Source: Saprospiraceae bacterium | Lineage (GTDB): Bacteria; Bacteroidota; Bacteroidia; Chitinophagales; Saprospiraceae | Direction of reading: 5' to 3' | Length of the DNA stretch: 64,000 nucleotides | NCBI GenBank assembly: GCA_041392555.1 | Contig: JAWKLW010000005.1 | Location: 4,080-68,079 of the forward strand | Part shown: positions 4,635-21,562 of the stretch, one piece after another | How the letters are laid out: each line of letters opens with the position of its first letter | Numbering within the stretch: position 1 is the stretch's first letter | The notes under the pieces: model-generated | What the model was told of the DNA's origin: nothing | Databases searched by the model: none | The model's input: only the letters and a program-made list of their open reading frames with translations | Translations under genes and position numbers: made by a program

Positions 4635-5114
4635 ATGTCTTTGGAAATTGAAAGAAAATTCTTAGTAAAAGGTGATTTTAAAAGTCATTCACATTCATCT
4701 GAAATAATAAAACAAGGTTATATCTCAACAATTCCGGAACGGTCTGTAAGGATAAGAATCCAGGGAGAAATTGCATTCCTGACAATTAAGGGAATAGGTA
4801 ATAAATCCGGAACTTCAAGGTTGGAGTGGGAAAAAGAAATCAGTATTGATGATGCCGAAATCCTTTTGCAAATATGTGAACCTGGAATGATAGAAAAAAC
4901 CAGATATCTCATCAATTTTAGAGAACATACATTTGAAGTAGATGAATTTCATGGCTACAATAATGGTTTAGTGGTAGCTGAAGTTGAGTTGGAAGATGAA
5001 AACGAAGAAATCATACTACCCGATTGGATTGGAAAAGAAGTAACCGGTGACGAAAAATATTATAATATTATGCTTATGAAATTCCCCTACTCTACTTGGG
5101 AAAGAGACTTTTAA
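4635..5114 (+). CDS. CYTH domain-containing protein
   Basis: An intact 159-aa ORF with an N-terminal EIERKFLV signature and acidic strands (VAEVELEDE) typical of CYTH/CyaB-ThTPase proteins. Confidence 0.75.
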   Translation: MSLEIERKFLVKGDFKSHSHSSEIIKQGYISTIPERSVRIRIQGEIAFLTIKGIGNKSGTSRLEWEKEISIDDAEILLQICEPGMIEKTRYLINFREHTFEVDEFHGYNNGLVVAEVELEDENEEIILPDWIGKEVTGDEKYYNIMLMKFPYSTWERDF

Positions 5115-5316
5115 AGTGAATAAGAATTAATTGTTATATTTTAATCCTCATTCCATAAATTAAATATTTTAGCACTTTAGTAGTAAAATCCATTACCTTC
5201 ATCTAATTTTTGGAATTCCATTGAATTTTTTACCCCTAAATAGCATTATATAAGTACCATTGAGAAACAAATGGAAATGAATGTTAAATAATTTATTCAC
5301 AATAAAATCATGAACA

Positions 5317-5592
5317 ATGTCAAAGAAAAATGAATTTTTAAATTTAGTAGGAGGTATTTTTATCGGTGCAGCAGTAGGAATATTATTAGCTCCTGAATCA
5401 GGAAATAAAACAAGAAAAAAGTTAAAAAAGAAATTTGATGAGATAAAGGATAATGCCGTTGATTATGGTGAATCCAAAGCTTCAGAATTATTACATAAAA
5501 CAGATAAGTATGTAGATGAGCTAAAAACTAAAATCAAAAATCTTGAAGATCAGATAAATTATCAAAAAGAAAAATTTGAAAAAGAACTGTAA
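5317..5592 (+). CDS. YtxH domain-containing protein
   Basis: 91 aa. A GGIFIGAAVGILLAPESGNKTRKKL N-terminal helix is followed by a coiled-coil tail. Confidence 0.7.
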   Translation: MSKKNEFLNLVGGIFIGAAVGILLAPESGNKTRKKLKKKFDEIKDNAVDYGESKASELLHKTDKYVDELKTKIKNLEDQINYQKEKFEKEL

Positions 5593-5697
5593 AACTTCAA
5601 TATTTTGACATTTTTTTATTCTGATTACAAATCAACATTTCAATTTATTATCCATAGATTGAAATGTTGATTTTATTAATTTGCAAACTATTTCAAA

Positions 5698-5997
5698 ATG
5701 GAAAACAGAACTCTCAAGGACTTTTATAATGAAATGACAGAATTGATAATTAAATATATTAATTCTTACATAGTTTTATTCAAACTGGAGATAACAGAAA
5801 AACTTGTAAAATTAGGCTCTTCCATTGTATCTGTATTTATCATATTGATATTCTTTTTTTCTATATTTCTGTTGCTTTCATTTTCATTGGCTTTTTGGTT
5901 AGGTTCTTTATTCGGTTCATTGAGTTTAGGATTTTTGGCTTCAGCAGGAATTGACTTAGTATTATTGGCGATATTAATACTACTGAAAACACATTGA
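5698..5997 (+). CDS. small two-TM membrane protein (Holin-X/DUF1469-like, commonly found after ytxH)
   Basis: 99 aa with two hydrophobic helices. It sits directly downstream of the YtxH gene. Confidence 0.5.
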   Translation: MENRTLKDFYNEMTELIIKYINSYIVLFKLEITEKLVKLGSSIVSVFIILIFFFSIFLLLSFSLAFWLGSLFGSLSLGFLASAGIDLVLLAILILLKTH

Positions 5998-6378
5998 TAG
6001 TGAAACCAATGATCAAAAACTTAAAGAAAATACTATTTTGATTTCTTGAAATGAATCTAATATGAAAAATTACTCTCCAAATATTAATTCTCTGATGATA
6101 TAAAAAAGAAAAGATACGAATCAAAAGAATATCAATAGTACTGAGTTTGAAATCAAGCATCGGGTTAAAAACATATCAGGAATAGGCAACAAAGTGATTC
6201 ATCAGAGCATTCAAACCACGGGTAAAGGAATATCTAATCAAAAGATTGATAAATTATTTTAATTGATTAATGATATTGTTATTCCTTAATTAATATTTTA
6301 AATTTCTTATCTTTGTCTTATATGTCATCTTTCAATTACTGCTGGCATATAATATTAATCATAAAAAACAAATTATAA

Positions 6379-7666
6379 TTGGCTAAAACAGGTAAAATTG
6401 GACTTATTGGAGCCATGTCCATTGGTATAGGTGGAATGGTAGGTGGAGGTATATTTGCTGTACTCGGACTATCTGTAACACTGGCAAAAGGAGCTGCTCC
6501 TGTAGCATTTTTGATTGCTGGAATTATCACTTTGATAACATCATACAGTTATGTTCACCTTTCTCTGAAATACAATAACGGGGAGGCACAGTAAAATTTA
6601 TAAACCAAGGATTCGGAACAAATGTATTCAGTGGTTCAATAAACAATCTGCTATGGTTGAGTTATATCATCATGCTGTCATTGTATTCTTCAGCTTTTGG
6701 TTCTTATGCTCCCAATTTATATTCGATTGTTGACCCTAAAACCGATTTCCACATCTATGCATCATTGATTATAATTATTGCAACAGTTATCAATTACTTC
6801 AGCGTAAAGGTAGTCAGTGACATTGAATCATTTGCAGTGATAATAAAAATTAATAATACTCGTTTTATTTACTATGATAGGAGGATATGGACTATTACAA
6901 AGTGATTATACCGGACAATTAATGCCTTCCACATGGGAAAATCCACTTATGATATTTGCAGGGGGAATGGTGATATTTGTGGCTTATGAAGGATTTGAAT
7001 TGATTGCAAATGCAACTCCGGATATAGTCAATCCTCAAAAAAATATTCCCAGAGCTTATTATTATTCAGTGATATTTGTCATCATTCTTTATATTGTAAT
7101 AGCATTAGTCACAGTCGGCTCTTTATCATTTGACCAGATTATAAAATCCAAAGATTATGTACTTGCAGAAGCAGCAAACCAATGCTCGGCAATCCAGGAT
7201 TTACCATAATAACCATTGCAGCTCTCCTTTCAACATTTTCTGCTTAATCAACTATTTATGGAAGTACTAAGGTAAGCTATGAAATAGCTGAAGATGAAGA
7301 ACTGCCTTCTCACTTTACAAGTACATTGTGGAATCAACTATAGGTTTATTGGTAACATCCATCGCCACACTTATCATTACCAATTTACTAAATATCGAAA
7401 GCATATCCATAGCTGGAAGTATAGGTTTTTTACTCATTTTTGCTTTTGTAAATTACGCAGGTTTTAGGCTGAGTAAAGATATGAACTCAAAAAAAACCAT
7501 ACATTTGATTGGATTCTTTTTATGTGAAATTGCTATTGTGGTGTTATTAGTAACTCAATTCTCTACTAATAAGACAGGAGTACTGGTTTCATTTTTAATC
7601 ATACTCACTTCATTTGTAGCTGAATGGTATTACAGAAAAATAGTTTTGAAGGATAAAGCGAATTAA
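6379..7666 (+). pseudogene. APC-family amino acid permease, split into at least 4 frames
   Basis: Collinear ORFs 6379..6594, 6657..6905, 6874..7209 and 7328..7666 are all polytopic membrane segments. GAMSIGIGGMVGGGIFAVLG is the typical permease N-terminus. Confidence 0.65.
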
Positions 7667-7675
7667 AACACTCGA

Positions 7676-9774
7676 CTATTTCAATACTGTTACATCGCCG
7701 GAAAACTCTCTTATTACCATCAATATCGGTACATTCTATTATATAGACATAAACACCAGGAGACACTGCATCCCTTAAAACTTACCATTCCAATAGATGT
7801 ATTTATCATCATTTATTTCAGTTATCAATTCACCCCATCTATCGAAAATCATGGCATTGACACTTGAAGACAAATAATCAGAAAGATTGACATACCAAGT
7901 ATCATTGTAACCATCTCCATTAGGAGTAAATATATTAGGTATAACAGTAATTATGACAACATTTTGGAAGTAGTATCAGAACACCCGAATTCATTTTGAG
8001 CTACCAGTGTTACTACATATCCCTTGCAGGCAGGTTAAGATTTGTGTAATTATGTGTGATTGAATTTCCGGTATAACTATATCCATCACCCATATCCCAA
8101 TAATAATCTACATCATTTTCCTCGTAAATATTGGCGCTAACCAGACTATTTCCTTGACTAATTTCTCTTGGCGAAAGGTTGAAATCAGAATAAGTAACCT
8201 TATATACATTTACTGAAACTTCATCTTCTTTAGTACAACCATTTTCATTTATCCCCACTACACTATAATTACCTGTTTCACTCACATAAATACTTGAAAT
8301 GGTATCACCAGTACTCCAGGCATAAGTTGATGCACCTAAGCAGATAACACTACAGTATCCCCTGCACAAGCTTCAAGAGCACCATCGATACTAAAATCCC
8401 AGTATTTATCTTCATTTACAGAGAAAATATATAGTATCTGAAATACATCCTGTAGAATGTCCTACCATCCAAAAATCTCCTCCGGATCACCTACTGTTAT
8501 ATTATCATCATGAGAGCCATCACTCCAATCATATATAGCTGCCCCATAAGCATTTATTTCCACTTCCTCTCCCCGGACAATATATACTATCACCCTCCAC
8601 TCCAACCAATGGTGGAGAAAATGATTCTACAACTTTTTCTATTGTGTCAGTACAATTAGAGGGTGTATTATACACGACTAAAGTGACATTATGCAAGCCT
8701 GAAGTTTCAAAGCTATATTCAGGATTTGAGCTATAAGATGTATTTCCGTCATTAAAATCCCACATATATTCAAGTCCTCCATAATTGGTACCGATAAATT
8801 AATAAATTTTACTGTATTGGATTGGCAGTCGAGCATCTCACTGTCAAACGATGCTGAAGGCTCATATTTTATCACATTAGTTTTCATCTCCACATCGCAT
8901 CCTGTGGCTGAAGTCATTTTACAAGTATATTTGACACTTGATTGTGGATTTTCAATTTCCACTTCCCTTTCATCGCTTGAGAAACTACCATCTGAAGCAG
9001 TCCATTCATATTTTCAAAACCATCCGTATGCATCAAGAAACCAGCAATGCTATCCTGACTACAATATTTCACTGTCAATTCAGGAGGTTGGCATGTTGCA
9101 ACAAAATAAGCATAACCATAATGCTTCAGGTGAGTACAATCGGCTGCTAAAAATTCAATTGTTATTGTCCTTCCTATATATGCACTCAAATCAGCACCCA
9201 CTGTTGTCCAATCTCTCCACACCACCGGGTCACTCTGATTGGAAAGCTGATATGTTTCAAAACTTCCGCTTAGAGATGCTTCAGTGGCATAGACATCATA
9301 ATTGGAACAATCCTCTATCTCCTCATCATTTTCATCATATAATGTAATTTTGAATCTCGGCTCCTCCCATACCTCATGATTATTGGTTGGGTCAAGAAAA
9401 ACCACAGCAAATTTATAGATAATCAGAGCATTGGAGGAATCGATAAGCAGACTATATCTCAAAGTAGCAACAGAAGTATTGTTTATCAAATCACCTAATC
9501 GGGCAGAATATTCAAATCCATCAGGTATTACTTTAAGCTTATTTCCAGTATTAGAATCATATGCAGACTGATCTGTCATAATGGTTTGCATATCATAACT
9601 CAATACAGGATCAGTAGATTGAACTTGCGAAATAGTACTATTTACCCAAGTATATCCTGTCCAATTTTTAAAATCACCATTTGAAAAATCCAGATTTTCA
9701 CAATGACTATTCTGAGCATTTACACTGACAAATGAAAATAATATTATCAGTAAACTGTAGATTGATTTATTCAT
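7676..9774 (-). pseudogene. T9SS type B (gliding-motility C-terminal domain) surface protein with PKD/Ig-like repeats, multiply frameshifted
   Basis: Signal peptide MNKSIYSLLIILFSFVSVNAQ at 9774. Collinear ORFs are 8914..9774, 8678..8962, 8529..8765 and 8013..8369. The C-terminus reads ...NAMIFDRWGELITEIN...YIYWNGK...PGVYVYIIECTDIDGN..REFSGDVTVLK-stop at 7676. Confidence 0.65.
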
Positions 9775-10279: not shown

Positions 10280-11260
10280 ATGAATACATTTGGTAGAATA
10301 TTCAGGATATCTATTTTTGGAGAATCTCATGGAGTTGCGATAGGAGTCACTATCGATGGATGTCCACCCGGTATTGAATTTTCTGAAAGCGATATGCTCC
10401 AAGACCTCGACAGAAGAAAAAGTGGTGCTAAAGGAACTACCCCGAGAAAAGAAAGTGATTTACCAAAAATAATATCTGGAGTTTTCAATGGTAAAACCAC
10501 CGGAAGTCCTATTACTATCATTTTCAATAATGAAAATACAAAATCCTCAGATTACAAATTCCTTAAAGATTCTCCGCGACCAGGGCATTCAGATTTTGTG
10601 GCAAACAAGAAATTCAATGGTTACAATGATTTCCGCGGGGGTGGTCATTTTAGCGGAAGGCTAACTTTGGGACTGGTAGCAGCTGGAAGTATTGCAAAGA
10701 AAATAATTGACCCAATAAATATCAAAGCTAAAATAATAGAAATCGGTGGTTCTACTGATTTTGAAAATACTATCTCCAAAGCAATGGAAAGTGGGGATAG
10801 TGTAGGAGGAATTGTAGAATGCAATTGCGAAAATATCCCTATTGGATTGGGCGAACCATTCTTTGATTCACTGGAATCCAATATCTCACACATGGTTTTT
10901 GCCATTCCTGCTACCAAGGGTATAGAATTCGGTTTGGGATTCGAATCAAGTAAGAGATATGGAAGTGAGGTCAATGATGACATTATCGATGCTTCAGGTC
11001 ATACTGCCACTAATAATAGCGGAGGGATAAATGGTGGTATCAGCAATGGAAATAATCTGTATTTTAGAGTTGCTATAAAACCTGGATCGAGTATTTCAAA
11101 ACCTCAGGACACATTCAATTTTACCGAAAATGAAATTAAATCTCTAAGCATCCAAGGCAGACATGATGCATGTATTGCCCTGAGAGTGCCTCCTGTCCTC
11201 GAAGCTGCCACTGCTATCGTACTTGCCGATATGATGTTATTAAATAAAAGAATCAGTTGA
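10280..11260 (+). CDS. aroC: chorismate synthase
   Basis: FGRIFRISIFGESHG N-terminus, RPGHSDF and GGGHFSGR motifs. Intact 326-aa ORF. Confidence 0.9.
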   Translation: MNTFGRIFRISIFGESHGVAIGVTIDGCPPGIEFSESDMLQDLDRRKSGAKGTTPRKESDLPKIISGVFNGKTTGSPITIIFNNENTKSSDYKFLKDSPRPGHSDFVANKKFNGYNDFRGGGHFSGRLTLGLVAAGSIAKKIIDPINIKAKIIEIGGSTDFENTISKAMESGDSVGGIVECNCENIPIGLGEPFFDSLESNISHMVFAIPATKGIEFGLGFESSKRYGSEVNDDIIDASGHTATNNSGGINGGISNGNNLYFRVAIKPGSSISKPQDTFNFTENEIKSLSIQGRHDACIALRVPPVLEAATAIVLADMMLLNKRIS

Positions 11261-11267
11261 GATACTA

Positions 11268-12266
11268 TTATTTGTATTTATATTTTTTTACAAATTCCTC
11301 ATATTCTTCAACCAATTGCTTTGAACCCAAAATTATTGGGCTTCTTTGATGCAGTGATTTTACTTCGATATCCAATATCCTCTCCATATTGGTATTGATA
11401 GCTTTTCCTCCGGCTTGCTCCACAATCATCGACATAGGATTACACTCATACAATATCCTCAGTTTGCCCGCCGGACTATTTCGTGTATTAGGATACAAAA
11501 ATATTCCTCCCTTTAAGATATTTCTGTGAACATCGGAAACCATACTTCCTATGTATCTCAAACTCCTTTTGGAATCTGAACAGAAATCGATATATCTTCT
11601 CATTTCGAGATCAAATTGCAGATAATATCCCTGATTTACACTGTAATAGTTGATAGTATCAGATATTTTAATATCTTTATGCGAAAGACAAAACTCACCC
11701 AAAGATGGATCCAAAGTGAATCCATTCACTCCATTTCCTGTAGTGTACATCATGATTGTAGAGGTTCCATACAGAATGTAACCGGCAGCTGCTAATTTAT
11801 TTCCCGGCTGAAGAAAATCCTTCAATTCACAGTCCTTACTATGGTCAGATATCCTCCTGTAAATACCGAATATCGTTCCTACGGAAACATTGACATCTAT
11901 ATTGGATGATCCATCAAGCGGATCAACAACCAAAACATATTTGGCATCCTTATTTTCCTTATGAGGCAAATTGATAAAATTCTCAAGCTCTTCGGAAGCA
12001 ATTCCACTGCACTCTCCGCTATTTTCCATATATTCAATGAGCTTAGTATTAGCAAATATATCGAGTTTTTGCACCTCATCTCCGGTTTTATTTTTAGAAC
12101 CTTCAACACCCAATATATTCACAAGTCCTGCCCTGTTTACTTCCCTGTTAACTATCTTAGCTGCCACCCCGATATCTCTAAGCAAACCCGATAATTCACC
12201 TGTAGCAAATGGAAAATCCTTTTGTTTATTTAAAATAAACTCATCTAATGTTGTAATCCTGTTCAT
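11268..12266 (-). CDS. fbp: class 1 fructose-1,6-bisphosphatase
   Basis: 332 aa with ATGELSGLLRDI, VVDPLDGSSNIDVNVSVGTIFGIY and ILYECNPM motifs. Confidence 0.9.
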   Translation of the reverse strand: MNRITTLDEFILNKQKDFPFATGELSGLLRDIGVAAKIVNREVNRAGLVNILGVEGSKNKTGDEVQKLDIFANTKLIEYMENSGECSGIASEELENFINLPHKENKDAKYVLVVDPLDGSSNIDVNVSVGTIFGIYRRISDHSKDCELKDFLQPGNKLAAAGYILYGTSTIMMYTTGNGVNGFTLDPSLGEFCLSHKDIKISDTINYYSVNQGYYLQFDLEMRRYIDFCSDSKRSLRYIGSMVSDVHRNILKGGIFLYPNTRNSPAGKLRILYECNPMSMIVEQAGGKAINTNMERILDIEVKSLHQRSPIILGSKQLVEEYEEFVKKYKYK

Positions 12267-12269
12267 AAT

Positions 12270-12941
12270 CTACGTTTTATTGTTATTGACAATCACCACA
12301 TACTCCCCCTTTATATTCTCATTTTCAGCATAATATTCTAAATGTTCTCCTGCGGTTTTCAATGAATACTTTTCATATATTTTTGATATTTCCTTTGCTA
12401 CACACACCAATGTGTCAGCATCCATATTTTCGACTATTTCCGCTATCAATTTTTTTAATCTGTAAGGACTTTCGTAAAACACAATTGTTCCCGGATATTC
12501 CTTCAGGAATTCCCAACGCTTTGTCCTCCCCTTTTTATGAGGCAAAAAACCTTCAAAATGAAATTTATCAGTAGGCATTCCTGATGCTGACAAGGCTGTA
12601 GTCAATGCTGATGCACCGGGCAATGCTATCACTTCAATATCGTTTTTATAACATTCACGAACAAGCAAATAACCTGGATCAGAAATCAGAGGTGTGCCAG
12701 CATCTGAAACCAATGCGAGATTCAAACCCGACTTCAACTCCTGAATGACCTTTTCCAAAATCTTGTGTTCGTTGTGATCGTGATATGATATTACGGGTTT
12801 GCTTATATTGTAATGATTCAAAAGTTTGGCAGTGACTCTGGTATCTTCAGCCAAAATCTTATCCACTTCAGATAGTATTTCTACGGATCTGAATGTCATA
12901 TCCTTCAAATTTCCAATGGGTGTAGGTATTATGTACAACAT
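12270..12941 (-). CDS. rsmI: 16S rRNA (cytidine1402-2'-O)-methyltransferase
   Basis: LYIIPTPIGNLKDMTFRSVEIL...ILAEDTR...SDAGTPLISDPGY. 223 aa. Confidence 0.85.
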   Translation of the reverse strand: MLYIIPTPIGNLKDMTFRSVEILSEVDKILAEDTRVTAKLLNHYNISKPVISYHDHNEHKILEKVIQELKSGLNLALVSDAGTPLISDPGYLLVRECYKNDIEVIALPGASALTTALSASGMPTDKFHFEGFLPHKKGRTKRWEFLKEYPGTIVFYESPYRLKKLIAEIVENMDADTLVCVAKEISKIYEKYSLKTAGEHLEYYAENENIKGEYVVIVNNNKT

Positions 12942-13167
12942 GTCACAAAGTTAATAAATTCAATTAATTTTTTTTCAATTTAATACGATATAAAAACGAT
13001 CTATAATAATATCTGAATACTAAATAGAATCTTTTTAGATAATCAAAAACAATACTGATTTTTAAATTTATTTTTCAAACATAAAGATTTTAAACGACAA
13101 AACTGACAACAAATCAACACTGATATAATTTCGTAAAATAATTTTTATTTTTTTTTGAAATAAATAT

Positions 13168-13197
13168 TTTGAAATTAAAAAAATAAAATTACCTTTG
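13168..13197 (+). promoter_or_regulatory. Bacteroidota-type promoter for tRNA-Glu (-33 TTTG, -7 TAnnTTTG)
   Basis: TTTG at 13168..13171 and tacctttg at 13190..13197, with 18-nt spacing. The tRNA 5' end lies 17 nt downstream. Confidence 0.5.
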
Positions 13198-13213
13198 CAT
13201 TTCCATTTTAAAT

Positions 13214-13285
13214 GGCCCGTTCGTCTAGGGGTTAGGACGCCAGGTTTTCATCCTGGTAGCAGGGGTTCGAATCCCCTACGGGCTG
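13214..13285 (+). tRNA. tRNA-Glu (anticodon UUC)
   Basis: Hand-folded cloverleaf: acceptor GGCCCGT/ACGGGCT, anticodon stem CCAGG/CCTGG with loop TTTTCAT (TTC at positions 34-36), T arm AGGGG-TTCGAAT-CCCCT. Confidence 0.9.
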
Positions 13286-13287
13286 CT

Positions 13288-13329
13288 AAAGGGAATTGAT
13301 TCAACTAAAGTGTTCAGTTCCCTTTTTTT
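13288..13329 (+). terminator. intrinsic terminator after tRNA-Glu
   Basis: Stem gggaattga/tcagttccc (one mismatch) followed by T7. Confidence 0.6.
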
Positions 13330-13569
13330 ATTATATCTCAGCATCTAAATTCCTTATCATTATAGCCATAATTTGGATTTAACAAACAATATTTATCAAG
13401 CTATAATTCTACAAAATAAATACAAAAACAACCGAAATTAACACTAAATCTTATTAAGTTTATTGCATATATTTAAAAATTAATTTAACTTGCAGCCGTA
13501 ATGTAAAGAAACGACAGTGGATTGGTGGTGTATACGGATGTTACAGGCAATTAAAAAAAGAAAATATCA

Positions 13570-14679
13570 ATGTTTCCAAAACTTTCAATAAATGCAATAA
13601 ATACTTTTAATCAGGTTGGACTTCTGACCGAATCTTTAATTTACTACCAACATTCAAACTTGATTCTTGACCCAGAAAGTTTTCCTGAAGCGCTAAGAAC
13701 AATTGGTTATGAAAACATGGTAGAATTAATCAAAGAAGGAGATTTATCTATCAATCTGAATTCACAGGCATTAGGTGTTGGAAACCCTGAAGGAACTAAG
13801 TATATTATAAGTTCTTTTTCTTCCAAAAATCATGATAAAGGGAGAATTTTAACAGAATCAACTGAAAAATTATGGGGAAGAAATATTCAATCAAATAATC
13901 AAAAAAAGAACCTATTAAAATTGATAGGTGAGCACAAATATTCGGATGATTACAACAATTTATTATCAAGTGAAATCTTGGATACTGAAAATTTTAAAGA
14001 TTCTATTGTTACCAAGTCCAAAGGAACAGTAAGCAGAGATGAAATTGAAATTGAAATAAAAAAAGATAGTAATGGATTTTTTGACATTCAATCCAATTGT
14101 GATAAAAAGTTAATTGAAGACTCTGCATATCTTATCTGTACAGGTTCAGGACTTTTATATGATTCAACAGCATATAATTCAGAATTAGTAACCAACTCAA
14201 ATATATCAACTTATCCTGCAAGTCGAATACAACGATTAATTGATAAGCGAACTGGAACAGATAAGCAAATAAGAAATTTTCATGAATTTGTTTTACCAGA
14301 ATTTTATGACTTAAAATCTACTGTAGATTCAGGAGTAAAACAATTTGACGAATTCATGGAACTTTGGAGAGAAGCGAAAAAATTCAAAGAATGGTTGAAA
14401 AATGAAGAACCCAATGTTGAATTATTAACTGCTTACATAAGAAAGATAAGCGAGAATAGTTGGTTGGATAAAATTCCAGTCAAAACTTTAAGGTGGATTT
14501 TATTTACTTCAGTTGGTTTAGCAATTGGAGATGTAACCGGGGGTATCGCGGGAACTGCTGCAAGTGTTGGTGTTGATATGTTTGACGATTTACTTTTTGA
14601 CGGAATATTAAAGCGGAATTACAAGCCTAATCAATTCGTCGAAAATGAATATAAAGACTTCTTAAACTTGGGAATATAA
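13570..14679 (+). CDS. hypothetical protein with C-terminal glycine-zipper transmembrane helix (island cargo 1)
   Basis: An intact 369-aa ORF in which I recognise no family. The C-terminus reads LRWILFTSVGLAIGDVTGGIAGTAASVGVDMF (GxxxG-rich hydrophobic helix). Confidence 0.6.
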   Translation: MFPKLSINAINTFNQVGLLTESLIYYQHSNLILDPESFPEALRTIGYENMVELIKEGDLSINLNSQALGVGNPEGTKYIISSFSSKNHDKGRILTESTEKLWGRNIQSNNQKKNLLKLIGEHKYSDDYNNLLSSEILDTENFKDSIVTKSKGTVSRDEIEIEIKKDSNGFFDIQSNCDKKLIEDSAYLICTGSGLLYDSTAYNSELVTNSNISTYPASRIQRLIDKRTGTDKQIRNFHEFVLPEFYDLKSTVDSGVKQFDEFMELWREAKKFKEWLKNEEPNVELLTAYIRKISENSWLDKIPVKTLRWILFTSVGLAIGDVTGGIAGTAASVGVDMFDDLLFDGILKRNYKPNQFVENEYKDFLNLGI

Positions 14680-14704
14680 AAAAAAGCCTGTAACTAAGGC
14701 TATG

Positions 14705-14738
14705 ATGTCCATGCCTCCTAAACGTCGGCACGGCACAT
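14705..14738 (+). terminator. GC-rich imperfect hairpin 26 nt after the cargo-1 stop (terminator-like, no U tract)
   Basis: atgtcc..tgcc[tcctaaacgtc]ggca..ggcacat. It is far more GC-rich than its surroundings and is the positional homologue of 15974..16008. Confidence 0.4.
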
Positions 14739-14755
14739 AGTCAAAACATCAGAGT

Positions 14756-14930
14756 GCGCAAAAACCTATAAATAAATATTAATAATAATTTGTATATGTT
14801 ATTGAATTTTTGTATTATGTAGCATAATACAAATCGAATTAATCAAATTATATGATACCTCATAGTGCTGCTCATAATCTTTTTTATTATTTTTGAATTT
14901 ATTTTTGGAGTTTATGCGTGAACTCCCGTT
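14756..14930 (+). repeat. 175-bp intergenic module, copy A (promoter-bearing leader)
   Basis: Aligns without gaps to 16026..16200 with 10 mismatches in 175 (94%). Confidence 0.9.
14888..14926 (+). promoter_or_regulatory. candidate -7 boxes plus conserved stem-loop inside repeat copy A
   Basis: tatttttg at 14888..14895 and 14900..14907 both fit TAnnTTTG. The ggagtt[tatgcgtg]aactcc hairpin lies at 14907..14926. Confidence 0.35.
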
Positions 14931-14957
14931 GTGTGTCAATTAGGAAAAAGAAAACAA

Positions 14958-15957
14958 ATGTGGTTCGAGAAATTAACAGGATTTGAAGAAAAGTCACCAG
15001 AAAATGTTAGAGAAAAACTTCTAATTGAAAGAGATTCTTTTGTTTCAAAGGCAAATAATGAAAGATTTTTTTTTGGAAAATTAGAGATTCCAACATTAGA
15101 AGAATTAAGGCAAAATAGTTCTCCACGAGAGGTGTACAAAGAAAAAATAGAAATAAGTGAGTGCGTTGGAGATGTCCAACAATTACATACTTTAAAAACC
15201 AATACTAATGCTCTCTTTCAAGCGGCTTCCCAATTCAATCTTTTAGAAATGATTGAGCCAGCTGTTACTCCTGAACATGGAATTGACAGATACGAAAGAG
15301 ATTATACACAAGGTCCAGCTTGTGCAATTGTATGCGGTGCTGGAACAATCTATAAATTACTTTGTAAAAATTGGAAATCAAATAGGTCAAACAGCAAATA
15401 ATCAAGTTGACTGCTTAGAATTGATTGGAGAAGAACTTCAAAATGAACAATTACATCTTTGGTCGATGAAAAATGGATATGCTCTAATCAACCATGAAGG
15501 ACTTTTAACAATCAATAAAAAGTTATCCAGTTTAACTGATGAACAAAGAGAAAATTTAAAAGGAAAATTAAAGGTTGGAATCCAATGGAATACGGAAGTA
15601 ACAATATCTGGTGATAAGCAAAAAGTATCGCAAATTTATTGTTCCGCTTTACCAGTTGCATATTGTCAAACTGATTCAATTTATTGGGAAAAATTCGCAA
15701 GATTGATCTTAGAAGCCACTTATGAGGCAACATTTTTTACGGCAATGAAAAACATGGAAGATAATAATTCAAACTTAGTTTATTTAACTTTAGTTGGTGG
15801 AGGAGCATTTGGTAATGAAGAATATTGGATTTTGGAATCATTGGAGAAAGTGATAAATAAATTTAAAAATGTTCCTTTAGATGCAAGAATAGTAAGTTAC
15901 GGAGAATCGAACCCCAGGATATTAAAATTCATAAACGAATTGAAAAATAAAAACTGA
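14958..15957 (+). CDS. conserved hypothetical protein, ~333 aa once one frameshift is repaired (island cargo 2)
   Basis: ATG at 14958 (MWFEKLTGF). ORFs 14931..15401 and 15253..15957 join if one A is removed from tataaatta near 15352 (GAGTIY|NYFVKIGNQ). Motifs: FQAASQFNLLEM, TQGPACAIVCGAG, LTLVGGGAFGNEE. Confidence 0.6.
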
Positions 15958-15973
15958 TGACAATAAAGTGTAT

Positions 15974-16008
15974 ATGTCCATGTCGGGTAAAAGCCCGCCA
16001 CGTCACAT
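15974..16008 (+). terminator. GC-rich imperfect hairpin 17 nt after the cargo-2 stop
   Basis: atgtccatg-tcggg[taaaag]cccg-ccacgtcacat. The outer atgtccatg/cacat is shared with copy A, while the inner stem differs but still pairs. Confidence 0.4.
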
Positions 16009-16025
16009 ACACGATCCGTCATAGC

Positions 16026-16200
16026 GCGCAAAAATCTATAAATAAATATTAATAATAATTTGTATATGTTATTGAATTTTCGTATCTTGTAGCATAATAC
16101 AAATCGAATTATTCAAATTATATGATACCTTATAGTGCTTCTCATAATCTTTTTTACTAATTTTGAATTTATTTTTGGAGTTTATGTGTGAACTCCCGTT
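16026..16200 (+). repeat. 175-bp intergenic module, copy B
   Basis: 94% identical to 14756..14930 at a constant offset of 1,270 bp. It keeps a TAnnTTTG box (taattttg, 16158..16165) and the ggagtt/aactcc hairpin with one loop substitution. Confidence 0.9.
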
Positions 16201-16253
16201 AGTACCTTATTAAAAAAACGCCCAAGAAAAGCACGTAAATGTTATTTTTTCAC

Positions 16254-16261
16254 TACATTTG
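16254..16261 (+). promoter_or_regulatory. candidate -7 box for the ATPase/RloB operon
   Basis: tacatttg matches TAnnTTTG and lies 22 nt upstream of ATG 16283. Confidence 0.35.
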
Positions 16262-16282
16262 CATTAAAAATATTATAAAATT

Positions 16283-17654
16283 ATGCTAATCAGATTCACT
16301 GTTGAGAATTTTTCGTCATTTAAAGAACGACAATCATTCTCTTTAATACCAGGAAGAGGCACATTGAAGGCAGAACATAAATCTAAACCAATTAATGGAA
16401 TATCTGTTTTAAAAACCTCTGTTATTTTTGGAGCGAATGCATCTGGAAAATCAAATTTGATTAAAGCTATGCATTTTGGAAAGTTGATGCTTATTGAAGG
16501 AAATTTATCAGGGAAACGTATAAATTATCAAAAATTTCGTTTAGATAATGAATTTCAAAATAGAGATACTCGTTTAGAATATGAATTTCAACATCGAGGT
16601 AAAAACTATGCATATGGTTTTGTTTTTAATAATGACATCATAAAAGAAGAATGGTTATTTGAAATAACCAAGAAAAAAGACATTAAGATATTTGAAAGAG
16701 ATATCAGCAAGGAATCAATATTTGATTTAGAGTATCTGTTTAATTTAAATAAAAATAACGAAGAAAAACAGTTTCTAAATTTCACAGCAAAGAACACCAA
16801 ACAATCAATTATTCTTAAGTGAGATAAAAAATAGAAAAGTAAAAGAGAATGTCTCAAATATTGAAGATTTATTAAATACTATTGATTGGTTCCAAAACGC
16901 TTTAAAAATTATTTTTCCTGATGATAAATATAAAGAGGGGCTTAAATTTGAATTAAGTGAAGACGAAAGACTTTTAAATGTTTATGAAGAATTGCTTAAA
17001 TATTTCGATACAGGCATTGAAGGAGTTTGCCTTGAACCAATCGACTATGAAAGTGTTGAAATTCCCAAATTTATACTTGAAAAAATAAAAGAAGATATAT
17101 TAAATCACAAAAGCGAGAATTTAAGAGCATCTATACTGTCAAATAGAAATACAACATATTTTATATCTGCTAAAAATAATGAAATCACCTATCATAAATT
17201 CATGACAAAACATAAAGTATCAGATATAAATATCCCTGAAAAATTTGACACAAGTGATGAGTCTGATGGCACTAATCGTATTATAGACTTTATTCCAATA
17301 TTAATGGATTTATTAAAAGGTGGCAATGTTTTCATTATAGATGAAATGGAAAGAAGCCTACATCCAAACCTTATCTACGATTTATTGGATTTATTTTTAG
17401 AAAAAAGCGAGAACATTAATAGTCAGTTAATATTAGCAAGCCATGAATCATCTTTACTAACACAAAAATTACTGAGAAAAGATGAAGTATGGTTTACTGT
17501 AAAAAATAATGAAGGAGCATCAAAAATACATTCATTAGAACAATATAACATTCGATTTGATAAGCAAATTAGAAAAGATTATCTATTAGGGCGTTTTAAA
17601 GCTATTCCTAAAATTGGAAACAGAAATAAATTAACGGTTTTACCTAAAGAATAA
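16283..17654 (+). CDS. AAA-family (AAA_15/AAA_21, ABC/SMC-like) ATPase with one frameshift
   Basis: Walker A GANASGKSN. Walker B/D-loop FIIDEMERSLHP, followed by ILASHESS. ORFs 16283..16822 and 16992..17654 become one frame if one A is removed at cttaagtgag (about 16816), reading ...SIILSEIKNRKVKENVSNIEDLLNTIDWFQNAL.... Confidence 0.75.
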
Positions 17655-17658
17655 AAAT

Positions 17659-18321
17659 ATGCCACGAGAAAGACAAGAAATATTCAGAGAAAGTAAAACT
17701 GAAGAAAAAGAAAAGATTATAGTACTTGCTTTTGAAGGTAATATAACGGAACAAATATATTTTGAAGACTTTATGTCTGATGAACAATTTAATGATAAAC
17801 TAATATATTTGCATTTATTAAAAAGACCAAAGGATGATACAAATAGTGCCCCTAATCATGTTTTCAGAAAATTAAAAAGAGAAGCTCGGGATGAATATAA
17901 TTTTGCACCCAATGATGAATTATGGATGATTATTGACACAGACAGGTGGAAAAATATTCCTGAAATAATCCAAGAATGCAAAAAACAAAAAAATATGTTT
18001 GTTGCCGTTAGTAATCCATGTTTCGAATTTTGGATTCTTTTACATATAAAAGATGTTGATTCATTAACAGAGCAAGAAATAATTGACATACTAAACAATA
18101 CCAAAATTTCAAACCACAAACGTTATATTGATGATTATATTGGGAATTTATTGCCAGATGGTTATAATAAAACAAACCCCAAGCCTGATAGATTTTTCCC
18201 TCATATTGACTTTGCAATTTCGCAGGCAGAAAAGTTAGACATAGAACAAAAAGATTATCCCACAAGTATTGGGTCACACGTATATAAAGTGATGAAAAAA
18301 ATAACAAGGCATAATAAATAG
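17659..18321 (+). CDS. RloB-like protein (Toprim-like partner of the upstream ATPase)
   Basis: IIVLAFEGNITEQIYF N-terminal block and the SNPCFEFWILLH motif characteristic of RloB-like proteins. It starts 4 nt after the ATPase stop. Confidence 0.75.
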   Translation: MPRERQEIFRESKTEEKEKIIVLAFEGNITEQIYFEDFMSDEQFNDKLIYLHLLKRPKDDTNSAPNHVFRKLKREARDEYNFAPNDELWMIIDTDRWKNIPEIIQECKKQKNMFVAVSNPCFEFWILLHIKDVDSLTEQEIIDILNNTKISNHKRYIDDYIGNLLPDGYNKTNPKPDRFFPHIDFAISQAEKLDIEQKDYPTSIGSHVYKVMKKITRHNK

Positions 18322-18331
18322 GAATATAAGC

Positions 18332-18373
18332 ATTCGGCACTGCCTGTCCCGACTTAGCAGGAACCCAGCGAAT
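18332..18373 (+). terminator. GC-rich imperfect hairpin 10 nt after the RloB stop
   Basis: attcg...ctgc[ctgtcccgactta]gcag...cgaat. It is followed at 18412..18422 by gaaaaacctat, which matches the first bases of the 175-bp module. Confidence 0.4.
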
Positions 18374-18946
18374 ATTTCCGTTAGCTGACGTATTGAACTA
18401 CATCCACTCTTGAAAAACCTATGTACTAAATGAAGTTTTTTATAGATTTTGGAGAATAATAAAGTATAGGAATAAATTGGATTTATATAGTTTCTGTTAA
18501 TCTTTATGGATTGTTTTGTTTGTGATTTATATTTTTTGTTGTGAAATATACAAAAATAATATACACTTTTTATGGTTATTAATTTTTTTTAATTTTACTC
18601 ATTCATTTGAAAAATAATTTAATATCTAATTGATTTTAGAAAAACTAAATATCATACCTAATAAAATAGTATCAAGTTTCAAAGAATTACCAATTGGGCT
18701 CAGATACATATATCCTTCCATAGCTTTAGCATTATTCTATGTTGGATTAATTATTAAAAACCCGATAATGAAAGATGTCTATTTCAGTTTATTGAATCTT
18801 ATCGTCATGATAACTTTATTGCATTATAAATACGAAAACAGGAGGGGAAAAAAATAAAAATACTACAATGAGGCCTAATAGACAAAAATGATGCTAAAAA
18901 CCTTTAAGAAGCCGATAAATACAGATATTTACAGAAATGAAAGGTT

Positions 18947-19863
18947 ATGAATAAAAAAAATGCTTTTACTGTAATAGTACAATTGTCAAGAAAAATGGCA
19001 AAATTAAAGGGAAACAGAGGTACAAATGCTATGCATGTGGAAAACAATTTATAGGAGGCAAAAGAATAATCAAAGAACAATTATGGAAAAAATATGTAGA
19101 AGGGAAACAAACATATTCACAATTGTCTCAAGAATATAGTTGTTCAATCAGGACGATCCAAAGATATTTGGATAAGATACAAGTAAATCATTATGAAAAG
19201 CAAAGGCGAAAAGTAATCGTGTTAATGGATACGACATATTGGAGGAGAGGGAGTTTTGGAGTAATGTTATTTAAAGATGGTATAAGTGGAGAGAACTTGT
19301 TAAAATACTACGTAAAATATGAAACCAATTCATTATATGGTCAAGGAATAGAGGAATTGAAAAGCAAGGGATTTGAGATAATTGCAATAGTATGTGATGG
19401 GCGCAAAGGATTAATACAAATGTTTAAAGATATACCAGTACAAATGTGCCAGTTTCATCAAAGTGCAATAATAAGAAGATATTTGACAAGGCGTCCAAAA
19501 CTGGAAGCATCATGTGAATTGATGGAAATAATGGATATGATGAAAAACACTGATAAAGAAAGCTTTACAGAGTGTTTAATGGAATGGCATGATAAATGGA
19601 AGTCCTTCCTTAATGAAAGGACAATAAATGAGGAAAACGGAAAATCTCACTACACACATAAAAAATTGAGAAGTGCATATAACAGTTTAAAAAGGAACTT
19701 CCCATGGTTATTCACCTGGTATGATCATATAGATTTGAAAATTCCAAATACTACTAATGCCATAGATGGTCATTTTTCCGATTTAAAGAAAAAATTGAGA
19801 TGTCATAATGGAATGAGTGAAAGACGAAAAAAACAATTTATAGATGAGTTTTTAAAGGCATAA
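18947..19863 (+). CDS. DDE transposase with N-terminal zinc ribbon and HTH; frame broken in an A8 run at codons 3-5
   Basis: After ATG 18947 and the A8 run (18953..18960), the frame reads KCFYCNSTIVKKNGKIKGKQRYKCYACGKQF (CxxC...CxxC). It then joins ORF 19123..19863, which carries DTTYW, VCDGRKGL and CQFHQ (D...DG...CxxH, Mutator/IS256-like pattern). Confidence 0.7.
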
Positions 19864-20083
19864 AGACCTCTGCAAAAAGTCTATATCATTGCATCTCTGA
19901 ACAATGGGTTCTATCCTAATATTAAAAAAGCCACACAAAAGGTGGCTCTGATATATTGACTTTTTTTCGTCGGTCATCTGTACTATCCCTGACAAGTTGC
20001 TCTCCAGCAGAGCTTGGTTCCGTTTATACAGATACATAAAATTATTTATAAAAATTTATTTTAACAACAATCAAGAAAAAAAC

Positions 20084-20143
20084 AGCATCATTTTTGTCCA
20101 TTATGACCATACATCTAAAAATTAGCATCATTTTTGTCCATTA
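20084..20143 (+). repeat. tandem duplication of the IS right inverted repeat (40-bp period)
   Basis: agcatcatttttgtccatta occurs at 20084..20103 and again at 20124..20143. Confidence 0.85.
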
Positions 20144-21562
20144 CACCAAGAATTAGAATATAAAGGGGTAACATCAGTAGTGGATATTTCTCATTATGCA
20201 GGAACTGGCACTATCAATGTGGTAGATATCACCGAACCTGGAGTTTATCAAACCCTTGTACCCAGTACCTGGATCTGTACTTGAACCAGGAGTATATTCG
20301 ATTGAATATACCGCTATAGGATGTAATGGATATCCAACAACCTGCAATTTTGATGTTACAGTAACATCGGGAACTCCAATCTTGGAATGCCCTAATAATG
20401 TTGTCGTTTATTCTCTGAAATGTCTGTGAAAGCATACAGTGATGAGGAGACCTATACCAATACAACTGATCAAAATGGAGATTACGCTTTTGAAGTTAAT
20501 CCTAATGTTTATAATATCGAAGCTAGTTCTGATGATGACTTCTCAAAAGGTATCACCACTATTGATATTGTGATTATCCAGAAATATATTCTTGGATTGA
20601 AACAGATTACTGATCCATATATACTTATGGCTGGTGATGTCAATATGAACAATAAAGTATCCTCATCTGATATCTTACAGCTCAGAAGGCTTATACTTGG
20701 TAGTGAAGATAGATTTACAAATAACTCTTGGATTGGTGTTAATGCTAATTATGAATTTGAAAATCCTACACATGCATACGAAGAAGCTGAACAAGCCACA
20801 AAGATAAAAGTAGATATATCTGATGGACAATCATTATCACAATTAGACTTCAATGCAATTAAGATAGGAGATATGAACAAGAGCCATCAAACAGCAGAAT
20901 TCAGAAGTTCTGATGCTTTAAAATTCAAGGTTGAAAACCGTTCAATTTATAAAGGACAAAGCATAGAAATTCCATTTTTAGCAAGTGATTTTAATGATAT
21001 TTATGGGTTCCAGTGTGCAATCAATATTGCAGGACTTGAAAATGTTCAACTAAAACCTGTTGCAATAAATATTAATGATGATAACACTAATATTAAAGAT
21101 GGAAAATTACTGATAAGCTGGGATGATGCAAGTGGTATTACTTTAGAAAATGATAAAGTACTATTCATTTTGACTGCTCAGGCAACTGCAGATGGAGTTT
21201 TGAATAATATATTAAATATCAATGACAGGTTATTAAGAGCAGAAGCTTATTCAGGTAAGGAATTATCTATAAGAAATGTAAATATTGACTTTGTCGATTA
21301 TTCATTTGCACTGTATCAAAATCAACCTAATCCATTCTCTAATGAGACTGCAATTGGATTTGATTTACCTGAAAATGGAGAATATGAATTGAAAATTTCA
21401 GATATGACAGGAAAAGAAATTTATAAAGTAAGAGCTTATGGAAAATTAGGCTATAATAAAATAACTGTTAAAGGCCAGGATATTCTGGCGTCTGGAGTTT
21501 ATTACTATCAACTAAGTACAGATAATTATACTGACACTAAGAAAATGGTGTTTTACAGATAA
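20144..21562 (+). pseudogene. 5'-truncated, frameshifted T9SS type A cargo protein (HYR-like and dockerin-like segments, Por C-terminal domain)
   Basis: The reading frame is open from the first base after the IS end (QELEYKGVTSVVD...). It contains PGVYSIEYTAIGCNGYPTTCNFDVTV and GDVNMNNKVSSSDILQLRRLILG. The C-terminus reads ALYQNQPNPFSNETAIGFDLPE...GVYYYQL...KKMVFYR. Confidence 0.65.

Follow-up and report, generated by a model that had tools for sequence, protein, structure and literature searches.

Integron cassettes are mobilised by IntI, a tyrosine recombinase that recombines the folded bottom strand of one attC site with another attC or with attI and cuts at G|TT, and recombination by IntI accounts for promoterless one-gene modules with identical ends in unrelated genomes. 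After circularisation of a cassette, the R'' box that opens its attC is paired with the bases at the start of that cassette. Here, we describe a stretch of 64,000 nucleotides (64 kb, hereafter the window) from contig JAWKLW010000005.1 of a Saprospiraceae bacterium, in which the segment running from position 13540 to an insertion sequence (IS) is likely a short, decaying array of integron-type cassettes, with no integrase nearby and with its right end cut by the IS.

The closest described systems are attC clusters that have no integron integrase (CALIN), and the present locus resembles them in its co-oriented attC sites with the order R''-L''-L'-R' and AAC/GTT triplets (PMC9024848, PMC8618304). 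It is also like them in its promoterless one-gene cassettes, which are bounded at G|TT and mostly of unknown function, with no intI nearby, and the origins proposed for CALIN (off-target insertion, loss of intI, or rearrangement away from intI) fit a locus that is truncated by an IS. Since two co-oriented attC sites were recognised by our covariance model (R1, described below) and no intI lies nearby, the locus falls within the CALIN definition. It differs in its host, an AT-rich Bacteroidota genome with type IX secretion system (T9SS) genes, in having only two model-supported attC sites, both mutated at the invariant R' triplet, and in a 182-nt repeat that lies between each attC and the next junction. 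Integrons are listed for Bacteroidota (PMC8618304), and integron elements were reported as only rare in complete genomes of this phylum by IntegronFinder 2.0 (PMC9024848). Anti-phage defence systems have already been described as integron cassettes (bioRxiv 10.1101/2024.07.02.601686; 10.1101/2024.07.02.601719). Elements that target attC sites are also known, namely the group IIC-attC introns and the IS1111-attC elements, which are 1.3-2 kb in length, encode a reverse transcriptase or a DEDD transposase, and insert near the 5' end of the attC in antisense orientation (PMC3001079). The mechanism of cassette acquisition is, therefore, itself already known and this locus is a further example of it.

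Cassette 1, the first module of the array, opens at G|TTACAGGC (13540-13548), and its start was read as GTTACAGGC. The 369-aa open-reading frame (ORF) that it carries is intact, and seven bases past the stop codon lies the R'' box GCCTGTAAC (14686-14694), which is the exact reverse complement of the module start at 9 of 9 positions. Complementarity between R'' and the start of the same module, together with a G|TT start, is the defining geometry of integron cassettes. Only 22 close homologues of the 369-aa protein were present among 5.8 billion proteins, and the contigs carrying them were fetched (contigs are given L numbers throughout). In four contexts, homology to cassette 1 sets in at 13528-13549, and in L083 at 13569, immediately ahead of the start codon, with unrelated sequence in the flanks. 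It extends to 14745 in L090-92 (97% identity; 14727 at the end of the L092 contig), in L084/85 (75%) and in L081/82 (72%), to 14694 in L093-96 (84%), and from 13569 to 14675, little beyond the coding region, in L083 (73%). In L090 and L084, the module terminates with ...CATAGCCAAACC|GTT, and the next module of L090 starts with GTTCGGTGCC and carries GGCACCGAAC after its own stop codon, the two being complementary at 10 of 10 positions.

When JGI metagenome contigs were scanned for exact matches to the conserved attC core GTCCATGCCTCCTAANNGTCGGCACGGC, 21 contigs were recovered. Upstream of the core, all of them have an ...AAC box (AAT in one), and downstream they have (G/A)CC|GTT, except for one rearranged site and one site cut by the end of the contig. 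The layout [R'' ...AAC]-3 nt-GGCTATG-A-TG-T-CC-A-TGCC-loop-GGCA-C-GG-CA-CATAGCC-5 nt-[GTT...] is shared by 16 of the 21. Three sets of contigs (L103, L108 and L111; L100 and L113; L101, L102 and L106) carry the same upstream cassette followed by different downstream sequence, with the junction falling exactly at CC|GTT. In an alignment of 18 sites (A6), the L-stem was 94% paired, with compensatory changes in 7 of 15 pairs, and the AAC and GTT triplets were nearly invariant. The covariation in A6 was reached by none of 500 shuffles, and pairing was 21-40% in slid registers. The predicted consensus structure leaves two bases of the 5' (L'') arm bulged and contains a single 1x1 mismatch, and folds of the bottom strand gave an R-stem, a spacer, and a bulged L-stem hairpin, with z-scores of -6.8 for L104, -4.9 for L090b, and -4.0 for the second attC of the window (attC-2).

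The R1 covariance model was built from this family and used to call attC sites. In 194 kb of cassette-related loci it found 45 sites, 2-4 per contig and always co-oriented within a contig, and in 1.45 Mb of control DNA (80 rsmI loci and the AbiL contexts) it produced no matches. The window gave two matches, both on the + strand and 1.27 kb apart, at 14684-14757 (81 bits, E 4e-21) and 15954-16027 (55 bits). Proteins encoded in arrays of this attC family mostly belong to no known family, and the annotations of some of the contigs (T9SS cargo, Saprospiraceae labels) point to an origin in Bacteroidota.

Two further observations were made in contigs of this family. A 3.8-kb cassette between two attC sites of L112 (3033-6954) encodes a C-5 cytosine (Dcm) methylase and three further ORFs, and is likely a restriction-modification cassette. 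L109 (1247-1320) and L110 (313-387) share a common upstream cassette, and the attC of L110 is broken in the L' arm and followed by unrelated sequence; this break is a rearrangement within the hairpin, not at G|TT.

The second module, cassette 2, carries a macro/PARG-like gene that is split over two frames by a 2-nt deletion; relative to L086 and L097, AG is absent at ~15355, in non-repetitive sequence. The module shares 90% DNA identity with L086 and L097-99 over 14926/14936-15968 only. In the L097 version, the start GTTGTCATC pairs with the R'' box GATGACAAC at 9 of 9 positions, and in L086 the homologue stands in a row of small ORFs of one orientation, among them a canonical Macro-domain gene. 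The protein belongs to a very conserved family of 329 aa with more than 6600 homologues at 65-90% identity, for which no Pfam Macro match and no PDB sequence match were found. A Foldseek search with the AlphaFold model of a 91%-identical intact homologue (pLDDT 80, pTM 0.85) returned bacterial PARG, YmdB, and viral macro domains (probability 1.0, target TM-scores 0.45-0.58), and the model thus suggests a macro/PARG-like fold for the cassette 2 protein. Homology of the macro-like cassette stops directly after R'' and AAAG (window 15968), and the cassette occurs at 90% identity with three different attC hairpins (window 15954-16027, L086 1062-1135, and L097 1698-1771), which suggests either attC replacement or very fast attC divergence.

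Both attC sites of the window depart from the family at the triplets. The first, attC-1, has its L-stem at 14698-14742 and has kept AAC, and its R' position (14748-14750) reads ATC, not GTT. In attC-2, the R'' box GATGACAAT has AAT, not AAC, and the R' position (16018-16020) reads GTC, not GTT. All of these triplet changes are substitutions. Because the window copies are without GTT, the identity of these hairpins as recombination sites rests on the intact members of the family, and the window sites themselves are predicted to be degenerate, non-recombinogenic members.

An AT-rich, non-coding repeat of 182 nt separates each attC body from the CC|GTT that follows it (14928-14930 and 16198-16200). 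This repeat corresponds to a "205-nt direct repeat" bracketing the second gene, and its second copy terminates at CC|GTTAGTACC. In the fold of copy 1, the ends are paired as an imperfect inverted repeat of ~28 nt (z -2.2 on the + strand and -3.2 on the - strand). Direct alignment of the ends matched ~30 of 38 nt in copy 1 and was weaker in copy 2, both ends being AT-rich, and a possible CCGT duplication was seen at copy 2 only. Two TAnnTTTG boxes near the 3' end of the repeat face the downstream cassette. A search for further copies in the window, in the fetched loci, and, with an exact 21-nt core pattern, in viral contigs returned none. An ORF-less cassette was considered for this repeat and fits poorly, as both copies begin with TC, not TT, and no R'' partner was found.

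The 182-nt element is the sole piece of the locus that is left unexplained. Our best guess is an insertion at the crossover point that resembles a miniature inverted-repeat transposable element, for which the evidence from terminal inverted repeats and target-site duplication is weak. Like the known attC-targeting elements, the repeat lies inside attC sites in a fixed orientation, and its outward promoter-like boxes toward the downstream cassette are similar to the Pout promoters of group IIC-attC introns (PMC3001079). Unlike them, it is short and non-coding, lies at the 3' (R') end of the site, and has no relative in the collections searched. A more specific proposal, which we regard as speculative and rather unlikely, is that the repeat is a miniature element not described before, with the R' (G|TT) end of attC sites as its target. 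It would freeze the cassettes by parting the attC body from the crossover point, while its TAnnTTTG boxes would give an outward Bacteroidetes-type promoter to the next cassette. It would then be a small, non-coding functional counterpart of the group IIC-attC introns and IS1111-attC elements that works from the other end of the attC.

Downstream of the second repeat copy, the AbiL module consists of an AbiLi gene spread over two frames (16283-17654) and an intact AbiLii/RloB gene (17659-18321), adjacent to each other with a gap of 4 nt. The two halves of AbiLi matched the PADLOC AbiLi model at 5e-32 and 2e-45 and Pfam AAA_21/AAA_15, and the AbiLii product matched Pfam RloB at 2.8e-29 and PADLOC AbiLii at 4e-19. 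In the matches to both PADLOC models and to the Pfam AAA and RloB families, and in the adjacency of the genes, the pair resembles the abortive infection system AbiL, from which it differs in that AbiLi is a pseudogene here. Compared to L121, GG is absent at ~16790 (between 16782 and 16798), in non-repetitive sequence, and the protein is split at ~residue 170 of 457. Because AbiLi is inactivated by this 2-nt deletion, no defence function is expected from the window copy. An earlier note on this DNA, made from the sequence, had read the cargo of the segment as defence-type and had suggested a PADLOC run; that run did identify the AbiL pair, but the 2-nt deletions in AbiLi and in the macro-like gene argue against live defence.

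The AbiL module has its own Bacteroidetes-type -7 box, TACATTTG, at 16254, and is framed by CC|GTTAGTACC (16196) and CC|GTTAGCTGAC (18378). The motif CCGTT[AG][GT] occurs six times on the + strand of the 64 kb, four of them within 14926-18378, and a weak attC-like hairpin after rloB ends with TTTCC|GTTAGC (GTT at 18380-18382). Because R'-like CCGTTAG motifs are present on both sides, the AbiL pair could be a third cassette, a reading that is plausible but unproven. An Abi-type two-gene system with its own promoter in a cassette array, along with the Dcm methylase cassette in the L112 array, is reminiscent of the defence cassettes described previously; the differences are the unproven cassette status of AbiL at this locus and the inactivation of AbiLi. 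In the contigs with the closest AbiL pair (L121-L125), which are binned as Aliarcobacter, the pair lies beside Maf and UbiA genes and has a Bacteroidetes-type promoter box upstream, indicating either cross-phylum transfer or misbinning.

The AbiL module bears on a different account of the locus, in which the segment would be an accessory hotspot built by homologous recombination and IS activity, and the GC-rich hairpins would be terminators carried along with the genes, not recombination sites. In its favour, GC-rich hairpins past stop codons are common terminators in AT-rich Bacteroidota, an IS is present, the AbiL genes have their own promoter and have relatives outside cassettes, and neither the model nor the fold shows the third hairpin to be attC-like. 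Terminators, however, give no reason for R'' to be complementary to the 9-10 nt that open its own cassette, as it is in several cassettes unrelated to one another, for AAC and GTT triplets that hardly vary to accompany covarying stems, for one and the same cassette to meet various neighbours precisely at G|TT, or for the sites to form co-oriented arrays while none was matched in 1.45 Mb of control DNA. We therefore consider the hotspot account quite improbable and retain the integron-type array as the reading of the segment.

The segment is closed on the right by an IS whose transposase matched NF048019 ("IS256 family, variant Zn-binding type") at 5e-109. The element has 22-nt terminal inverted repeats (IRL 18876-18897 and IRR 20122-20143, 21 of 22 positions complementary), and resembles this variant in its length of 1268 bp, its 22-nt inverted repeats, and its single DDE transposase with an N-terminal 4-Cys domain. 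It differs in the lack of the 8-9-bp target duplication, in the transposase frame, and in the doubling of the right inverted repeat, an inner copy of which is found 40 nt inward at 20077-20103 with 93% identity. Right after its start codon, the transposase gene (18947-19863) has its only break of frame, in an A8 tract (18953-18960); addition of one A to the tract brings the 4-Cys domain into frame and gives a match to NF048019 positions 2-301 of 304 with 435 bits. Behind this frame break there could be a switch by slippage, a mutation, or an error of sequencing. A comparison with plasmids gave one weak 147-nt match only as a relative of the IS. No target-site duplication was found, the flanks being ATGAGGCC on the left and CACCAAGA on the right, and its absence fits a secondary rearrangement, not non-membership of IS256.

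At 20144, the sequence enters a T9SS cargo protein midway along its length; HYR, dockerin-like, and Por_Secre_tail domains were recognised in it. In a tblastn comparison with two intact 707-aa paralogues from the nearest genome, L001, only residues 327/340-707 were matched, with ~240-330 N-terminal residues absent, and the remnant has at least two frameshifts in its first 280 nt (20144-20420). The earlier note had reported that the 5' half of this gene is not found left of the IS, and the N-terminal part was indeed found nowhere else in the 64-kb window. Because the IS is without target duplication and its flanks are unrelated, the right edge is a rearrangement junction, as that note had proposed. 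Its further statement that the IS truncates a core gene is right as to the truncated T9SS gene at the IS but not as to "core", the gene being one of several paralogues and already frameshifted.

The decay could in principle be largely technical, the frameshifts being sequencing errors and the IS junction an assembly join of two IS-bearing loci. The transposase frameshift lies in an A8 homopolymer, a typical site of error, IS copies are classic points of misassembly, and several other genes of the window are fragmented. Against this, the two cargo deletions (GG and AG) fall in non-repetitive sequence, which is not how errors usually look; the frame of the T9SS remnant breaks several times within 300 nt; the attC triplets have changed by substitution; and most long genes of the window are intact. 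Since both cargo frameshifts are 2-nt deletions in non-repetitive sequence, the two genes are taken as real pseudogenes rather than the product of homopolymer errors, and the technical account is the one to which we give the least credence.

The left border of the segment was examined for signs of tRNA-directed integration. An integrase search by phmmer with IntI1, followed by tblastn of the window with IntI1 and the L083 fragments, found no tyrosine recombinase or remnant in the 64-kb window or in the 21 attC-bearing loci, and no second copy of the tRNA-Glu 3' end was present in the window at up to 3 mismatches; the earlier note had stated both absences and both are borne out. Because the tRNA 3' end is not repeated, the adjacency of the tRNA gene has no detectable role. 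G+C content across the 6.8-kb island after tRNA-Glu is 0.24-0.32 with a window mean of 0.308, which gives no compositional island signal. A classical genomic island, inserted into or beside tRNA-Glu by a tyrosine integrase no longer present and bringing its cargo as one block, would account for a segment that starts right after the tRNA gene and its terminator and holds accessory, defence-like cargo, and the IS rearrangement at the right edge could have removed the integrase. This origin is contradicted by the separately mobile one-gene modules, each of which is found alone elsewhere with G|TT and attC ends, and it also sits poorly with the unrepeated tRNA 3' end, the missing integrase or remnant, and the lack of a compositional step, so that we judge it highly improbable. 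On the same findings, the locus shows the marks of neither a tRNA-integrated island, with an integrase gene and a direct repeat of the tRNA 3' end at the far border, nor a complete integron with intI, attI, and a cassette promoter (Pc) at the array head. Acquisition had been left unexplained in the earlier note, but genes 1 and 2 have the form of integron-type cassettes and carry attC sites, and for at least these two, acquisition cassette by cassette through attC recombination makes a tRNA-directed integrase unnecessary.

The sequence of events under the cassette-array reading may be reconstructed as follows. The cassettes would have been brought by an integrase that acted in trans or has since been lost, and would have entered at a secondary G|TT site on the downstream side of tRNA-Glu, or else joined a larger array, truncated later. 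During subsequent decay, both attC sites would have lost the invariant GTT, and one of them also AAC, the 182-nt AT-rich element would have come to part each attC body from the G|TT junction that follows, and two genes would have gained 2-nt deletions. The IS256-family element, by adjacent deletion or by IS-IS recombination, may have replaced the distal end of the array together with the 5' part of the T9SS gene. We would expect the locus today to be immobile and for the most part without function. In this sense it offers a picture of a dying array, with mutated triplets, insertion at the crossover point, frameshifts, and truncation by an IS.

Several points weigh against this reading. Neither attC of the window has the canonical GTT at the expected position, and to the left of cassette 1 neither an attC nor an attI can be recognised. 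The data examined yielded no integron integrase, so that the connection with IntI is drawn from the site anatomy; the IntI1 query did detect the L083 recombinase fragments, which serve as the positive control. The attC calls were made with R1, our own model, which derives from this same family. As for the AbiL module, the hairpin after rloB was not detected by R1 and its fold is no better than that of shuffles (z -0.5), and the nearest AbiL relatives (L121-126) lie in non-cassette contexts, with 86% DNA identity over 16240-18304 only, so that the homology ends inside the putative frame. Finally, the comparison of the surroundings covers relatives with RsmI at no more than 68% identity, among which there is no close relative of the host.

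The features of the locus are collected in Table 1. The inventory given in the earlier note (aroC-fbp-rsmI-tRNA-Glu, two genes, an ATPase/RloB pair, an IS, and a T9SS ORF) was recovered in full.

Table 1 Features of the tRNA-Glu locus, with positions in the 64-kb window
Feature	Position	Strand	Basis or remark
aroC	10280-11260	+	left of tRNA-Glu
fbp	11268-12266	-	left of tRNA-Glu
rsmI	12270-12941	-	left of tRNA-Glu
tRNA-Glu (UUC)	13214-13286	+	ARAGORN; Rfam tRNA 61 bits; left neighbour of the array, outside the mobile unit
AT-rich spacer with tRNA terminator hairpin (13290-13329)	13287-13539	+	read from the sequence
Cassette 1, 369-aa gene (13570-14679)	13540-14750	+	G|TT start, attC, homology ends
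182-nt repeat, copy 1	14749-14930	+	93% identity to copy 2
Cassette 2, macro/PARG-like gene (14958-15957)	14929-16020	+	homology ends, attC, Foldseek
182-nt repeat, copy 2	16019-16200	+	93% identity to copy 1
AbiL module, possible third cassette	16199-18382	+	PADLOC, Pfam, flanking CCGTT motifs
AT-rich last segment before the IS, 75-aa ORF with two transmembrane segments (18630-18857)	18383-18875	+	ORF list
IS256-family element, Zn-binding variant, 1268 bp	18876-20143	+	NF048019 match, inverted repeats
3' remnant of T9SS cargo gene	20144-21562	+	three-frame translation, Pfam, NCBIfam

The spacer between the tRNA gene and cassette 1 contains no recognisable attI or attC, gave no significant R1 match, and has no similarity to the fetched loci. 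At the other end, the last segment before the IS stops 18 nt past the stop codon of the 75-aa ORF, where the IS begins, and neither the ORF nor the segment has a family match (Pfam, NCBIfam, PADLOC) or similarity to the fetched loci. A search of 12900-21000 with Rfam 15 returned the tRNA only, with no attC-type match at E<=1, and a scan for sigma-70 promoters and terminators gave matches no more numerous than in shuffles.

Relatives of the neighbourhood were collected by a scan of genome contigs with RsmI, which reached at most 68% identity, and 12 of the loci were scanned with ARAGORN; an exact-protein look-up of RsmI gave no match. The nearest genome, L001 (JBLMZC010000020.1), shares the trx-aroC-fbp-rsmI block, with FBPase at 81% and RsmI at 68%, and has T9SS cargo genes. 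It is titled "Deltaproteobacteria bacterium MAG213", a label that looks wrong for a T9SS-bearing relative of Flavobacteriia. A tRNA-Glu gene beside rsmI was present in none of the 12 scanned loci, and the island genes are likewise not beside rsmI in the closest genomes, which agrees with the accessory status that the segment had been given earlier. To the left of the block, a second decayed T9SS cargo gene (PKD/CHU_C) at 7701-9774 (- strand) is broken over four frames and has a homologue of 704 aa in L001, indicating that gene decay in the window extends beyond the island. The ~3.7 kb at 5114-8817 are without an ORF of at least 150 aa and consist in part of this decayed PKD/CHU_C gene.

Beyond this locus, the analysis documents an attC family, in 21 metagenome contigs and in the contigs with homologues of the two cassette genes, with arrays in environmental contigs. 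It also highlights two uncharacterised cassette families, the 369-aa family and the 329-aa macro/PARG-like family, for which defence or anti-defence roles are conceivable. Both proteins had been called orphans, a description that no longer holds, as the macro/PARG-like protein is widespread and the other belongs to an uncharacterised family of ~1100 clusters. A profile of the 369-aa family (A3) recovered 1140 cluster representatives at 50% identity (~390-400 aa), 842 of them at E <= 1e-10. The 369-aa protein itself had no Pfam, NCBIfam, or PADLOC match, and ten sampled remote members had no significant match to Pfam or PADLOC. Its predicted model (pLDDT 73) has an N-terminal alpha/beta part and a Gly-rich hydrophobic C-terminus at low confidence, and a Foldseek search of the model against PDB and BFVD returned nothing below E 1e-3. 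Elsewhere, homologues of the 369-aa protein are found beside Dam methylase, DUF87, and YqaJ genes in L081 and inside an integrase/RteC/MmeI element in L083.

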